The notes below the pieces were generated by a model that did not search any database, was not told the DNA's origin, and saw only the letters and a program-made list of their open reading frames with translations. The translations under genes were made by a program, and so were the position numbers. DNA of 17,927 nucleotides from a virus. Its lineage: Duplodnaviria; Heunggongvirae; Uroviricota; Caudoviricetes. The stretch spans positions 1 through 17,927 of the IMG/VR virus record IMGVR_UViG_2585427748_000008. One strand, 5' to 3'. The number at the start of each line of letters is the position of its first letter. The first letter of the stretch is position 1. Positions 2,448-15,795 of the stretch are shown here, in pieces.

Positions 2448-2997
2448 TCATCACTGGAAAGTGGAAAAACAGCCTGAGTGGTACGTGAAAGCTGTCAGAA
2501 AAACTATCGCGGCGTTGCCGGGGGGTTACGCTGAAGCTGCTGAGTGGCTGGATGTAACAGAGAACGCATTATTCAACCGCCTTCGTGCAGATGGCGATCA
2601 GATTTTCCCGCTGGGATGGGCAATGGTTTTACAGCGTGCGGCTGGCACTCACTACATTGCGGATGCTGTCGCACAGTCTGCTGGTGGGGTGTTCGTATCG
2701 CTTCCTGAAATTGAGGCAGTAGAGAACGCCGATATAAACCAGCGCCTGCTGGAAGTCATTGAACAGATCGGCAGTTATTCCAGACAGATTCGTTCAGCAA
2801 TCGAAGACGGTGTAGTGGAACCGCATGAGAAGACAGCAATTAACGACGAACTGTATCTTTCAATTTCGAAGCTCCAGGAGCATGCAGCACTGGTCTACAA
2901 AATCTTCTGCGCTCCAGAAAAGAGTAACGCCCGCGAGTGTGCAGCTCCGGGCGTCGTGGCGTCGATTGCTTCTGGTTGTGGAGAAACTAACGCATGA
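2440..2997 (+). CDS. CII-like / YdaT-family early regulatory protein
   Basis: GTG start preceded by AGGAGG; 185-aa ORF overlapping the cro stop by 8 nt; sits at the cII position; family call from memory. Confidence 0.6.
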   Translation: MGNHHWKVEKQPEWYVKAVRKTIAALPGGYAEAAEWLDVTENALFNRLRADGDQIFPLGWAMVLQRAAGTHYIADAVAQSAGGVFVSLPEIEAVENADINQRLLEVIEQIGSYSRQIRSAIEDGVVEPHEKTAINDELYLSISKLQEHAALVYKIFCAPEKSNARECAAPGVVASIASGCGETNA

Positions 2998-4139
2998 ATA
3001 GTTTAACGGCAAATAACCGTTTGTCGCAACAGCTGGTGGTCAGCGTCGCTGAACACCTGTTGTTACGGCATGAATGCAGATTACCAAATCACCTGGCTGT
3101 AAGTAACCACAGAGAACTTTACCTGACTGTGGGGGGCGAGTTGTGCAGGAACTTAACCGCTGGTTTCGTGACGGAAGAGGGCTTTATGTCCATGTTATTC
3201 GTTGGGAGCCAGAAACACAGCGCGTTATCTATCTTCGCAAAGACTACCCGCATGAGTGCTTTAGTCCTTTGTGGAAATTCAGGCGTGATTTTGTTGAGTG
3301 TGAAGGACCACCAGCATATTGATTCTGCAATTCCGGGACGTTACACTGTTCAGGCACCTTATAAAGCGGGTGCCGGGATTGGCGTCCTGAAATTCGCACA
3401 TGCGCATAACCGCGCTTCAGCGGTTTTTTTGCGCACGTTTCCTCACATCCAAATTATGGTGGGGCGTGCAGGGGCATCGAAAGATGCGCCGGGGTCATGT
3501 GCGACCGGTTACGCCAACCCTGTACGTCTCACCACCTCTGTGATTGGCGTCCCATGTGGTGAGTTTTCAAAATTCGCACATGAGGATGTCACTATGGCAA
3601 CCACCCCTACCCAAACTCACCCTAAAATTGATGTTATCCATGGGAAGGCTGTTACCTCTTCTTTGGCCGTTGCCGAATATTTCTGCAAGCAGCACAAAAA
3701 CGTTATTCAAAAAATCCAGACGCTTGAGTGCTCTGTTGAATTCACTGAGCTGAATTTTCAGCCCAGTGATTACACCGATTGCACAGGCCGCAAACTCCCT
3801 TGTTACCAAATCACCCGCGACGGTTTTGCGTTTCTTGCCATGGGCTTCACGGGGAAACGTGCTGCCCGGTTCAAAGAGGCATACATCAATGCCTTTAACC
3901 AGATGGAGAAACAGCTTTCAAATCCCTCTGTACTGAGCGACGTTGCACATAACGCCAGCGTTCTCTATTCCTACATTTCATCAATTCATCAGGTCTGGCT
4001 GCAGCAGCTTTATCCCATGTTGGCAAAAGCCGAATCCCCGCTGGCTGTAAGTCTGTATGACCGCATCAACGACGCGGCGCTACTGGCCAGTCTCATAAAT
4101 TTGTCGCTGAACCCTTCAGAGGTAAGGGGGCGCAAATGA
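2994..4139 (+). CDS. Rha-family phage regulatory protein; Rha domain in the C-terminal ~182 aa, with a likely independent start at 3594
   Basis: Frame is open for 381 codons from an ATG overlapping the upstream stop (ATGA). Residues from 3594 (MATTPTQTHPKIDVIHGKAVTSSLAVAEYFCKQHKNVIQKI...) look like a Rha N-terminus and have GAGGA 7 nt upstream. Coding status of 2994-3593 is uncertain (see findings). Confidence 0.6.
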   Translation: MNSLTANNRLSQQLVVSVAEHLLLRHECRLPNHLAVSNHRELYLTVGGELCRNLTAGFVTEEGFMSMLFVGSQKHSALSIFAKTTRMSALVLCGNSGVILLSVKDHQHIDSAIPGRYTVQAPYKAGAGIGVLKFAHAHNRASAVFLRTFPHIQIMVGRAGASKDAPGSCATGYANPVRLTTSVIGVPCGEFSKFAHEDVTMATTPTQTHPKIDVIHGKAVTSSLAVAEYFCKQHKNVIQKIQTLECSVEFTELNFQPSDYTDCTGRKLPCYQITRDGFAFLAMGFTGKRAARFKEAYINAFNQMEKQLSNPSVLSDVAHNASVLYSYISSIHQVWLQQLYPMLAKAESPLAVSLYDRINDAALLASLINLSLNPSEVRGRK

Positions 4140-4360
4140 TCCGGAATATTTTCAAACGGTTTACCAATCATACTTTCCGTTGTCCTCGTCCGGGTCAGTG
4201 GTACACCACGCCTGCAGGGCATGTTCTACGTGTTAGCCTGGTTGACCGTGAATGTCAGAAGGTGATTTGTGAACCGCTGGGCCGTAATTACCGCATCAGT
4301 ATGCCGCTTATAGCCTTTTGCTCCGGAAAAAACATGAAGCATCTCGGAGGTGCAGCATGA
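4136..4360 (+). CDS. Small hypothetical protein (74 aa, Cys-containing), translationally coupled
   Basis: ATG overlaps the Rha stop (ATGA) and its own stop overlaps the next ATG (ATGA at 4357-4360); no recognisable family. Confidence 0.4.
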   Translation: MIRNIFKRFTNHTFRCPRPGQWYTTPAGHVLRVSLVDRECQKVICEPLGRNYRISMPLIAFCSGKNMKHLGGAA

Positions 4361-13095: not shown

Positions 13096-13171
13096 GGCCC
13101 TTTAGCTCAGTGGTGAGAGCGAGCGACTCATAATCGCCAGGTCGCTGGTTCAAATCCAGCAAGGGCCACCA
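13096..13171 (+). tRNA. ileZ: tRNA with CAT anticodon (Ile2-lysidine type or Met), 3' CCA encoded
   Basis: Manual fold: 7-bp acceptor GGCCCTT/AAGGGCC, D-arm TAGCTCAGTGGTGAGAGC, anticodon loop CTCATAA, T-arm CTGGTTCAAATCCAG, discriminator A then CCA. Symbol given by analogy to the ileZ-argN-argO cluster of Stx phages. Confidence 0.85.
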
Positions 13172-13178
13172 TCACATA

Positions 13179-13252
13179 CCGCCATTAGCTCATCAGGAAA
13201 GAGCGCCAGCCTTCGAAGCTGGTTGCGCGGAGTTCGGGTCCCCGAAGGCGGT
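13179..13252 (+). tRNA. argN: tRNA-Arg-like (anticodon TCG), aberrant: one acceptor-stem and one T-stem mismatch, no encoded CCA
   Basis: Manual fold: acceptor CCGCCAT/AAGGCGG (6 of 7 pairs), D-stem GCTC/GAGC, anticodon stem CCAGC/GCTGG with loop CTTCGAA, T-arm CGGAG-TTCGGGT-CCCCG (4 of 5 pairs). Confidence 0.6.
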
Positions 13253-13268
13253 TCATTATCTGTATCCT

Positions 13269-13345
13269 GCGTTGTTAGCTCAGCCGGACAGAGCAATTGC
13301 CTTCTAAGCAATCGGTCACTGGTTCGAATACAGTAGAACGCGCCA
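13269..13345 (+). tRNA. argO: tRNA-Arg (anticodon TCT), with one acceptor-stem and one T-stem mismatch; CCA encoded
   Basis: Manual fold: acceptor GCGTTGT/AGAACGC (6 of 7), D-arm TAGCTCAGCCGGACAGAGC, anticodon stem ATTGC/GCAAT with loop CTTCTAA, T-arm ACTGG-TTCGAAT-ACAGT (4 of 5), discriminator G then CCA. Confidence 0.75.
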
Positions 13346-13384: not shown

Positions 13385-13833
13385 AAATGTCTCACAATTC
13401 AGGCGGTTGACTGTTGTCTGGTTTGCGGGGAGTTTGTTAAAAGAAACTGGCATGGTGAATCCCCCTGTGCGGAGGGGCAATCAGCGAGTAGGTATATGGG
13501 ATAATCGCGGATTCAGGTGCTGGTACTGAATTCACCGGGAGGCACCCGGCACCATGCAATGGCACATAGTGCCACTCTCCAGCCCCTCTCCGGAGGGGCT
13601 TTCTTATGGACAAAAAAAGCCCGCGCAGGGAGACGCGGGCGGCAAGGAATAAACAACAAAACGTGAAGTAATATTTCAGCTGGCGAATAATATCCGACAG
13701 TAATCACTCTGCGCAATAGCGCGGCCTTTTTCGTATTGCGGGCTGTTGTCTATCTTCTGCCATTGTCCTGTAACTTCCGGACTTCAGCCCGCTCCTCATT
13801 TTACTCACAATATTATCCAGGCCGGGAGGATTC

Positions 13834-15795
13834 ATGGCATTTAAACACTATGACGTGGTCAGGGCGGCGTCGCCGTCAGACCTTGCGGAGCGACTGACAC
13901 AAAAACTGAAGGAGGGGTGGCAGCCATTTGGCAGTCCGGTGGCCATCACGCCTTATACCCTGATGCAGGCCATTGCGGCGGAAGGTGATGTCACCACACC
14001 TGTGGTGGTGAAGCCGTCGGATGGAGAAGGCGCAGTTATCAGCACCACCAGCAACCCGGAGTATTACTTTGTTGTTGCCCTGGCCGGGCAGTCAAACGGT
14101 ATGGCGTATGGTGAAGGGCTTCCGCTGCCGGAGACATATGACCGTCCGGACCCGCGTATTAAACAGCTGGCGCGTCGCAGCACTGTCACGCCGGGTGGTG
14201 CGTCCTGTAACTACAATGACATTATTCCTGCGGACCACTGCCTGCATGATGTTCAGGATTTGAGTAAGTTTTCACACCCGAAAGCTAGCGCAGCTCAGTA
14301 TGGATGCGTGGGGCAGGGATTACATATCGCGAAGAAATTGTTGCCGTTTATTCCGGCGAATGCCGGTATTCTTCTGGTTCCGTGCTGCCGTGGTGGTTCT
14401 GCATTTTTGGCGGGCGATGAAGGTACCTTCAGCGAATCCACCGGCGCAAGCGAGACCTCGGCACGCTGGGGTGTAGATAAGCCACTGTACAAGGACCTGC
14501 TTACCCGTACTCAGGCCGCACTGAAGGCTAACCCTAAAAATATTCTGCTTGCAGTGGTCTGGATGCAGGGCGAGTTTGATTTGAAACAGGGTGCATACGC
14601 CACTCAGCCGGGGCTGTTTGATTCCATGGTGGAAAAATATCGTTCTGACCTGTCGGAATTCGGAGGTCAGTGTCTCGGGGGCTCTCCGTCATCGGTTCCC
14701 TGGATTTGTGGCGACACGACCTACTACTGGAAGCAGACTTATTCTTCGCAATACGATGCGGTGTATGGTGCATACAAGACGAAATCCGCAAAAAAAATCT
14801 TCTTTGTGCCGTTTATGACGGATGAAAACGGGCGAAATGTGGGTACCAACGAGCCGTCAGAAGATCCGGATGTTGCGGATATTGGGTATTACGGAGCCGG
14901 TGGTCGAACGGACGCCAAAACCTGGACGACGGCCGACCGTAAAACGCATTTTGGATCATGGGCACGTCGTGGGATTATTTCCGACCGTCTGGCAACGGCG
15001 ATTCTTGTGCATGCCGGGAGAACCGCTGAATTCATTACCGGAAAACAGCCTGATACGGTGAAGCCCACCGGACCTTCCGGTGAAGGTACGGAGAGAGAGC
15101 CGGAAGCCCCGGTCAGTAACCGAACCCTGATGAGTCTGCTGGCGTCCGGCGAAGACCTGGCATCACAGGGCTGGCGCTATTATCACAAACCGGCGAGCGG
15201 AGACAATGTTAACAAAAACATTGCTGAAGCGGTGGTCAGTGATGCGGGGGCTACGGGAGGTAAGGCCCTGCAACTGAATAAACCGGAAAACCACATCTGG
15301 TTTCTGGAGCATGATGCAGCCGGACAGGGAGTGGAGTTACTGAAGAAGGGGGGACGTGTGAGCGTACGGTTTAAGTTGCCGGGTTCACTGGTGCCGAATC
15401 GGTTTGCCCTGGGCATTTACTGGCAGTTGTCGTCCCTGCCGGAGGGAGTGACGCTGGCAGAGGAAGGCAACGACATGCTGATGTCCTTCTTCCTGCAGAC
15501 GGATGCGACGAACCTGAACGCGATGTACCACAAGAAGCCGAATGCGAAGCTGGATACGTTCGGGGTCTTTGATAACGGATGGCACACACTGGCTTTTGAG
15601 TTTGCCGGAAACAACAGCATTCAGGTGACGCCGGTACTGGATGAGAAACGGGGGACGCCGTTCACACTGGTGAAATCTCCGGCATCAGGGGCGGCGGACA
15701 AACTGCAACTGACAGGCATATCAAAGGCGGCGACATATACGCTGCTGATTGACAGTGTGAAGGTGGAAGTGAACAACGCGGATGCCGCGGCATGA
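13834..15795 (+). CDS. nanS-p: Prophage sialate O-acetylesterase NanS-p (N-terminal DUF1737-like region, SASA/SGNH esterase core, C-terminal extension)
   Basis: 653-aa ORF with GGGAGGA RBS; the AGQSNG motif (FVVALAGQSNGMAYGEG) is typical of the sialate O-acetylesterase catalytic site; sits where nanS-p lies downstream of stx in Stx phages. Confidence 0.85.
   Translation: MAFKHYDVVRAASPSDLAERLTQKLKEGWQPFGSPVAITPYTLMQAIAAEGDVTTPVVVKPSDGEGAVISTTSNPEYYFVVALAGQSNGMAYGEGLPLPETYDRPDPRIKQLARRSTVTPGGASCNYNDIIPADHCLHDVQDLSKFSHPKASAAQYGCVGQGLHIAKKLLPFIPANAGILLVPCCRGGSAFLAGDEGTFSESTGASETSARWGVDKPLYKDLLTRTQAALKANPKNILLAVVWMQGEFDLKQGAYATQPGLFDSMVEKYRSDLSEFGGQCLGGSPSSVPWICGDTTYYWKQTYSSQYDAVYGAYKTKSAKKIFFVPFMTDENGRNVGTNEPSEDPDVADIGYYGAGGRTDAKTWTTADRKTHFGSWARRGIISDRLATAILVHAGRTAEFITGKQPDTVKPTGPSGEGTEREPEAPVSNRTLMSLLASGEDLASQGWRYYHKPASGDNVNKNIAEAVVSDAGATGGKALQLNKPENHIWFLEHDAAGQGVELLKKGGRVSVRFKLPGSLVPNRFALGIYWQLSSLPEGVTLAEEGNDMLMSFFLQTDATNLNAMYHKKPNAKLDTFGVFDNGWHTLAFEFAGNNSIQVTPVLDEKRGTPFTLVKSPASGAADKLQLTGISKAATYTLLIDSVKVEVNNADAAA

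Follow-up and report, generated by a model that had tools for sequence, protein, structure and literature searches.

The antisense-RNA type of phage immunity is represented by C4 of phage P1, CI of satellite phage P4 and IsrK of Gifsy-1. The Rfam family RF01695 was founded on C4 of P1, in both P1 and P4 RNase P releases RNAs of the C4 type from a longer precursor, and in P1 the leader icd lies between C4 and ant and has to be translated for ant to be expressed. Here we analyzed a stretch of 17,927 nucleotides (nt) of an E. coli lambdoid prophage (IMG/VR record IMGVR_UViG_2585427748_000008; hereafter the window, in whose positions all coordinates are given). We place considerable confidence in the explanation that its region 2994–3593 holds three superimposed items on the + strand: a DUF4222 gene, an antisense-RNA control cassette, and an overlaying open frame of 381 codons. 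Judged by its sequence, the cassette (3319–3593) is of the P1, P4 and Gifsy-1 type, a known kind of phage control cassette, which here lies in a lambdoid early operon and would control a Rha-domain protein. A search with 801 bases of the window (2900–3700) gave 100% identity with E. coli FORC_069 and 99% with phage Lys8385Vzw.

In P4, only an upstream late promoter yields transcripts from which the frame called eta can be translated; eta is coupled to the gene before it and prevents termination by its translation (PMC10111431). The same source describes the logic linking eta to kil and states that relatives of CI and seqA are detected by the Rfam C4 and isrK models. In Gifsy-1, IsrK is regarded as a structural homologue of P4 SeqA, its binding of Hfq and its trans-activation of the downstream antirepressor have been shown, translation of the antirepressor rises ~140-fold when IsrK is supplied in trans, and the C4 region yields a processed RNA of ~80 nt, STnc1160 (PMC4825925).

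Two Rfam families are recognized in adjacent positions of the window cassette. The first is isrK (RF01394, 62.3 bits; gathering score 50), which identifies an IsrK/SeqA-like small RNA at 3354–3430 consisting of hairpin 1, hairpin 2 with the target site a1 (3379–3385) in its loop, the target site b1 (3394–3402), and an intrinsic terminator (3408–3425) with a T run at 3424–3430. The second is C4 (RF01695, 75.1 bits; gathering score 45), whose model is matched over its full length by a C4/CI-like antisense RNA at 3452–3539. This RNA comprises a basal stem of 17 base pairs, two hairpins, the loop b′ (3495–3504) and the single-stranded segment a′ (3511–3517), and the basal stem is tRNA-like and followed by CCACC, the one sequence feature here that points to possible excision from a precursor. 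In an alignment of 22 diverse cassettes, hairpins 1 and 2 of the IsrK-like RNA are 100% paired, with covariation in the stems, and each of the three C4 stems is 100% paired, with compensatory changes. The adjacent pair of isrK and C4 was found at gathering score in 14/14 related phage loci, which include SfV, ST64B, cdtI, mEp460, several Stx phages, a Yersinia phage, a P2-like phage and Gifsy-1, and the same pair is carried by P4. A further Rfam family, RF03163 ("a1, b1 targets of C4"), gave a weak match at 3341–3393 (21.6 bits, below threshold); this family overlaps isrK in Gifsy-1 and P4. As a separate observation, a ryfA RNA (Rfam, 134.6 bits) is present in the Yersinia phage vB_YpM_44 (locus L010, 149–447), ~1 kb upstream of its isrK/C4 cassette.

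Upstream of the IsrK-like RNA, a candidate cassette promoter was located at 3319–3347, with the −35 hexamer TTGATT (3319–3324), a 17-nt spacer and the −10 hexamer TACACT (3342–3347). Across 65 distinct cassettes, the best match to the promoter pattern (−35 TTGNNN, spacer of 17–18 nt, −10 NANNNT) lies at a fixed distance of 37 nt from a1 in 63, and the sequence between the hexamers varies. The element is predicted to be the equivalent of PisrK in Gifsy-1 and PLE in P4.

A preliminary description of the window had listed two repeated words in this region. Both occur where they were placed: GATTGGCGTCC at 3377 and 3542, and AAATTCGCACATG at 3390 and 3570, in each case with two matches versus 0.01 expected and with 0/200 shuffles reaching two. 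Comparison with the C4 segments revealed that these words are the RNA target sites a1/a2 and b1/b2. The segment a′ is complementary to TTGGCGT at a1 and at a2 (3544–3550), the loop b′ is complementary to TCGCACATG(A) at b1 and at b2 (3574–3583), and the complements to the C4 segments within their own locus measure 7–10 nt at all four target sites. Target a2 is displayed by a stem-loop at 3529–3562 (96% paired, with 2 compensatory pairs), in which 3529–3535 pairs with 3556–3562 around a 20-nt loop. Because this stem-loop uses for its 5′ arm bases that also form the 3′ side of the C4 basal stem, the two structures are mutually exclusive.

Target b2, the 10-nt complement to b′, extends into the start of the Shine-Dalgarno sequence GAGG (3582–3585) that precedes the ATG at 3594, and in 30 of 33 alleles the b2:b′ duplex overlaps or abuts the Shine-Dalgarno sequence. 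Across the 14 related loci, the Shine-Dalgarno sequence and the ATG always align at one position, irrespective of the gene that they precede, in agreement with the earlier suggestion that the Rha domain has its own ribosome-binding site and start codon. The genes preceded by the cassette are themselves unrelated: they encode Rha, ORF6N (AnrP) and Bro-N proteins, Kil-like open reading frames (ORFs) of 62–65 amino acids (aa), an ORF of 77 aa and, in P2-like phages, a P4 epsilon-like "Derepression" protein. Two terminator-like hairpins had also been proposed. The first was called, together with its T run, by the terminator scan; for the second (3528–3568) the stem is real, but it was rejected as a terminator, since its T-tract is not conserved in the alignment and its loop carries a2, and it is a target-presenting stem-loop.

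Pairing between loops and targets was examined in cassettes of phage records and of IMG/VR contigs, 119 in all. They hold 37 b′ loops, 16 a′ segments and 42 allele pairs, with targets that match each allele, and the median complement is 7–9 nt to a cassette's own targets versus 4–5 nt to the targets of other cassettes. Helix co-variation, measured on the 22-sequence alignment, is strongest on the upstream side, with a1:a′ 98.7% paired (6/7 pairs changed on both sides) and b1:b′ 97% paired (8/9 pairs compensatory); b2:b′ is 80% paired (8/10 pairs compensatory) and a2:a′ ~83% paired (5 compensatory pairs). Helices slid out of register reach only ~40% pairing, and 0/500 shuffles attain the observed values. 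In Gifsy-1, numbered from the Rfam isrK start, the orf45 AUGs lie at +107 and +119, a′ at +158–164, and G28 and G31 fall in a1. These positions agree with the published numbering of Hershko-Shalev et al. (PMC4825925), whose compensatory mutants G28A/C162U and G31A/C159U are thus direct tests of a1:a′ pairing.

By analogy with the homologous systems, the following regulation is most likely. The internal promoter at 3319–3347 would start transcripts near 3354, most of which would end at the intrinsic terminator to give an IsrK/SeqA-like RNA of ~77 nt that carries a1 and b1. Transcripts that read through would be processed into a C4/CI-like RNA of ~88 nt, whose a′ and b′ would pair with a2 and b2 on the mRNA and block translation of Rha, because b2 overlaps the Rha Shine-Dalgarno sequence; transcription into the replication genes downstream of Rha would probably be blocked as well. 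Free IsrK, having the same a1 and b1 sites, could compete for C4 and turn Rha translation on. The gene under this proposed control, in its short nested form (3594–4139), encodes a Rha-domain protein of 181 aa (Pfam Phage_pRha, E 1e-32; anti-repressor PHROGs), which is probably an antirepressor governed by the cassette.

Several points weigh against this scheme. The candidate promoter agrees with the consensus at 8/12 positions, which is just below the threshold, and the promoter scan did not call it. Promoter use, RNA ends, processing and the translation of either form of the Rha gene are predictions. Unlike in P1, no separate icd-like ORF is found between C4 and Rha, and the Rha ATG at 3594 directly follows b2. 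The antirepressor role ascribed to Rha derives only from family names and position. The energies of the loop-target duplexes are not clearly better than those of shuffled loops, since GC-rich flanks dominate them, and support was therefore taken from the co-variation. Finally, constitutive STnc1160 strengthened the IsrK-mediated growth arrest in Gifsy-1 (PMC4825925). A simple scheme of repression by C4 and relief by IsrK does not predict this effect, and a model of remodelling in cis was therefore kept as a live rival for the mechanistic details.

In that model, which follows the mechanism described for Gifsy-1, a1 and b1 would pair in cis with the C4 region of an inactive read-through mRNA, and IsrK acting in trans would remodel the fold and activate an upstream ORF at the 5′ edge of C4 (ATG 3456 in the window), so that the C4-like RNA would be no repressor in trans. 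Direct experiments in Gifsy-1 stand behind it (PMC4825925), and the equivalent ATG at 3456 is present in the window, in frame with Rha. However, the ORF through C4 varies from 8 codons to full fusion and stops 24–114 nt before the ATG in several loci, and a2 and b2 co-vary with the C4 loops at the Shine-Dalgarno sequence, which is the repressor logic of P1 and P4 and is left unused by the Gifsy model. We regard a mechanism of the Gifsy-1 type as a possibility that deserves attention but is rather doubtful for this locus; the two models are not mutually exclusive.

Inside the long frame, in the −1 frame relative to it, lies a 59-codon ORF with a GTG start (3143–3322), present as the preliminary description had given it. 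A protein search with its 59-aa product identified DUF4222 (PF13973; Pfam E 9e-14, 51.1 bits versus a cut-off of 27; PHROG 1343, E 2e-36), and PGAP annotates a homologue in other E. coli genomes. Alignment of 22 loci revealed that the third codon position of this frame stands out clearly as the most variable, with an entropy of 1.07 versus 0.46 and 0.28, and that 59% of the differing codons in 3143–3322 are synonymous in the DUF4222 frame versus 9% in frame 0, the frame of the long ORF. DUF4222 is a genuine, independently started gene. With this coding signature and the two RNAs recognized by Rfam within 3354–3539, the earlier reading of the region as a small gene plus a regulatory or noncoding RNA region is upheld. 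DUF4222 was also considered as a part of the cassette, which was rejected: 17/18 DUF4222 loci from other species lack the RNAs, and one cassette (L015) lacks DUF4222.

A run of six G (3131–3136) precedes the DUF4222 gene, ending 6 nt before the GTG at 3143, and forms part of Val-Gly-Gly codons of frame 0 (GTG GGG GGC). A frameshifted or phase-variable gene had been one of the earlier readings; the run would then be a programmed −1 frameshift site or a tract of variable length, and would fuse the first 46 codons to the DUF4222 frame in a protein of ~107 aa. The heptamer G GGG GGC is indeed in register with frame 0, and in the window the open stretch of the −1 frame begins at 3107. Against such a fusion, the run is six G long in 24/24 close relatives, with no length variants among them, and ST64B and a Citrobacter prophage have GGGGGA within GGGGGATGA, which puts a −1-frame stop at that spot. 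A Stx1 phage has no G run, and its DUF4222 starts at its own ATG; in all three of these loci (L007, L008 and L016) a stop directly precedes the DUF4222 start codon. An in-phase slippery heptamer is absent from the 20 other loci examined, the near-identical L002 being the only locus besides the window to have one; in the 17 relatives that lack the cassette, the gene has a normal start codon preceded by a normal Shine-Dalgarno sequence, and a frameshift fusion is seen in none of the relatives. The frameshift or phase-variation reading is accordingly most improbable. The G6 run probably acts as the Shine-Dalgarno sequence of DUF4222, in whose place relatives have a Shine-Dalgarno sequence of the GGAGG type ahead of the start codon.

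The third item is the long frame itself (2994–4139). The ORF listing confirmed that frame 0 is open over 381 codons from an ATG at 2994, coupled through ATGA to the upstream gene, to the stop at 4139. The frame starts upstream of the internal promoter, crosses DUF4222 out of frame and then both RNA genes, and is in frame with Rha. RefSeq labels the whole interval as a single 381-aa "Rha family phage regulatory protein", and the Pfam family Phage_ASH (PF10554) matches aa 117–211, equivalent to 3342–3626, with 54.6 bits versus a cut-off of 26.

Comparison of distinct cassettes separated two classes. In 31 sequences, the frame of the downstream gene extends upstream without a stop for 85 codons or more, and in 50 it is closed within 46 codons, mostly within 17; Gifsy-1 belongs to the closed class, in which all length residues occur. 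In the open class, the distance from a1 to the ATG is 215, 218, 221 or 257 nt in 26/28 sequences, all equal modulo 3, and the 28 cassettes contain 0.04 stops each in the long frame versus 1.6 and 4.0 in the other frames. Over 28 diverse sequences, neither codon periodicity nor an excess of synonymous changes is seen in frame 0 across the cassette. The frame is thus observed to be kept open without selection on its amino acids.

These observations bear on the reading, considered earlier, of one long protein with internal repeats, in which 2994–3593 would be merely the N-terminal 200 residues of a 381-aa Rha-family protein and the repeated words would be protein repeats. The unbroken frame, the annotation of the long ORF by PGAP and in several phage records, the Phage_ASH match, and the openness of the frame in 28–31 distinct relatives all speak for it. 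Yet the coding signature at 3143–3322 belongs to the DUF4222 frame (59% versus 9% synonymous), frame 0 has neither periodicity nor synonymous excess over the cassette, and in 50 distinct cassettes, that of Gifsy-1 among them, a stop interrupts the frame no more than 46 codons from the ATG. Moreover, co-variation ties the repeats to the C4 loops as RNA partners, and the conserved Shine-Dalgarno sequence and ATG mark a start at 3594. A conserved 381-aa protein with a synonymous bias in its substitutions does not appear in the alignments of the relatives. A single protein of this kind is very unlikely; what survives of the proposal is a frame conserved as open, whereas its internal repeats are RNA target sites. 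Phage_ASH aligns exactly with the translated DNA of isrK, C4 and the target sites. Its conservation appears to stem from the underlying RNA genes rather than from a protein domain, because its aligned translation (3342–3626 in the window; 1669–2268 in P4, L154) has no periodicity and no synonymous excess. Dismissal of Phage_ASH as a purely spurious family was nevertheless softened, as the frame is probably translated, like P4 eta, yet without amino-acid selection.

Within DUF4222, frame 0 is free of stops in 22/22 loci, although synonymous shuffling predicts ~2 stops per locus and a probability of 0.02–0.08 per locus of having none. The codon choices of DUF4222 follow the same pattern: Val and Leu codons that stand before an A end in T or C in 72/72 cells, and endings in G or A occur where no frame-0 stop is possible. 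An open frame of 200 codons over sequence that does not code for protein is not a matter of chance. On balance, from homology with P4 and from the evolutionary signature, we slightly favor the view that 2994–4139 is a read-through frame of the eta kind in which the 181-aa Rha gene is nested. Since the frame starts at the ymfL-coupled ATG upstream of the internal promoter, it would be translated only from early-promoter transcripts after induction. Ribosomes on the long frame would then cross the terminator, the C4 structure and the targets, so that expression of Rha and of the genes behind it would escape the RNA repressor.

The openness of the long frame could, on the other hand, partly reflect the shared ancestry of related cassettes, which weighs against the eta-like reading. 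Taken further, the frame might be untranslated, an ancestral stop-free sequence frozen by conservation at the level of the RNAs and of DUF4222. The lack of amino-acid selection in frame 0 fits this explanation, as does the relatedness of many open cassettes to one another. However, the open class spans many loop and target alleles, spacers and flanking genes, and yet its indels are multiples of three and its stops number 0.04 per cassette; an untranslated frame also leaves the 72/72 at-risk Val and Leu codons and the 22/22 stop-free loci to be accounted for. In addition, the start of the frame always adjoins the stop of the upstream gene, and P4 eta is reported as translated (PMC10111431). We consider an untranslated frame unlikely. 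Returning to the eta-like reading, a tentative extension of it is that in prophages of the e14/SfV/ST64B type, the frame from the ymfL stop to the replication genes might exist purely for translation, with its amino acids free of selection, and pass out of frame over DUF4222 and, in loci with a cassette, over both RNA genes; it would be a ribosome-driven device against termination and polarity by which early-promoter transcripts disregard the RNA repressor. This broader proposal is possible but doubtful.

The 5′ part of the long frame suggests where the frame comes from. Its first 50 codons (2994–3142) are homologous to the N-terminus of YmfM of prophage e14 (MNSLTA.NRL...). In the alignment with 21 relatives, this part differs in length by whole codons (48, 50, 56 or 60), and its coding signal in frame 0 is weak, with 20% synonymous differences versus 14% and 8% in the other frames. 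Analysis of 17 relatives without the cassette revealed that the same frame is an ORF of 108–127 codons, ATGA-coupled to ymfL and with DUF4222 at −1, which stops ~10 nt before the ATG of a replication gene. In E. coli K-12, the e14 gene ymfM (112 aa; L155, 1595–1933) is this frame-0 ORF without a cassette, and PGAP annotates DUF4222 there instead. From this comparison, the tail of a ymfM-like ORF seems to have received an in-frame insertion of the cassette together with the Rha gene.

As a side observation, a DUF4222 ORF lies at −1 in e14 ymfM (L155, 1595–1953), where the substitution pattern is that of coding sequence in the DUF4222 frame and not in the ymfM frame. ymfM has been reported as an SOS-inducible division inhibitor of e14 that causes filamentation, in a preprint in which the entire ORF was cloned and the nested gene goes unmentioned (10.1101/2020.11.19.390815). 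Because the whole ORF was cloned and its DUF4222 frame holds a conserved protein, the filamentation described there may be due to the nested DUF4222 product and not to YmfM. The nested arrangement raises the question of which product drives e14-dependent filamentation.

The gene directly upstream of the long frame is ymfL (2440–2997, + strand), which encodes a CII-like regulator (Pfam Phage_CP76, E 3e-15; "protein YmfL" in RefSeq). Genes of the early right operon are linked by ATGA stop/start overlaps, between ymfL and the long ORF at 2994–2997 and between the long ORF and a 74-aa ORF (4136–4360) at 4136–4139. This chain is consistent with obligatory translational coupling along the operon. 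Elsewhere in the window, three tRNA genes and then the small RNA STnc100 (140 bits) were observed at 13096–13342 and 13421–13611, just upstream of a 653-codon ORF (13834–15795), a layout similar to that of the tRNA cluster within the late-regulatory region of Stx-type phages.

RefSeq and many phage records fuse the small gene, the promoter, the two RNAs and the targets into a "Rha family" or "Ash family" protein. Three aspects of the locus go beyond routine: its annotation hides a control cassette, the natural allele series is large, and the long frame would serve translation only, even across a real out-of-frame gene. The 42 co-varying loop and target alleles are a natural set of orthogonal RNA regulator pairs, and these dozens of specificities probably govern cross-talk among co-resident prophages. 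The cassette would form a second, RNA-based layer of immunity that decides on antirepressor production and is common in Shiga-toxin prophages and in other prophages of E. coli and Salmonella.

Compared with the immI region of P1 and P7, the window cassette has the same RNA family and the same plan, in which each of two RNA segments matches one upstream and one downstream site and the downstream sites lie at the ribosome-binding site. The regulated product is an antirepressor-type protein in both cases, as far as can be predicted for Rha, and the specificity alleles that underlie the heteroimmunity of P1 and P7 co-vary as they do among cassettes of the window type. The window differs from P1 and P7 in that Rha itself, with no icd-like leader, stands at the target, in that the cassette is part of the early right operon, flanked by a CII-like gene and the replication genes, and in that the a1/b1 part becomes a small RNA of its own through a terminator.

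The isrK-orf45(STnc1160)-anrP region of Gifsy-1 shares with the window two adjacent Rfam RNAs followed by an antirepressor gene, the Rha gene being the putative counterpart. Unlike in the window, the Gifsy-1 cassette follows the Q gene in the late-regulatory region, its through-reading frame is closed, and C4 is overlapped by a distinct ORF of 45 codons whose end lies on the start of anrP; AnrP carries an ORF6N domain, not a Rha domain.

P4 reproduces the order of the window elements: a stop/start overlap, a long ORF, an internal promoter, a seqA-like RNA, CI, a target at the ribosome-binding site, and a nested in-frame gene. The internal promoter is constitutive in P4, and its counterpart in the window is predicted from sequence. 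P4 immunity reportedly works through Rho-dependent termination, whereas the IsrK-like RNA of the window ends at an intrinsic terminator. The window element is a lambdoid prophage of the e14/SfV/ST64B type and P4 is a satellite, the nested gene encodes a 181-aa Rha-domain protein in the window and the 65-aa Kil in P4, and the long ORF of the window, unlike that of P4, crosses an out-of-frame DUF4222 gene and has a YmfM-like N-terminus. ORF199 (eta) of P4 begins where the gene upstream of it stops, covers both the isrK-like and the C4 match, and has kil in frame. Phage_ASH, which matches Eta at aa 22–146 with 82.4 bits, covers the part of the long ORF over the RNAs in both elements, and the nested genes begin alike, with MATTPTQ in the window and MATTLTP in P4.

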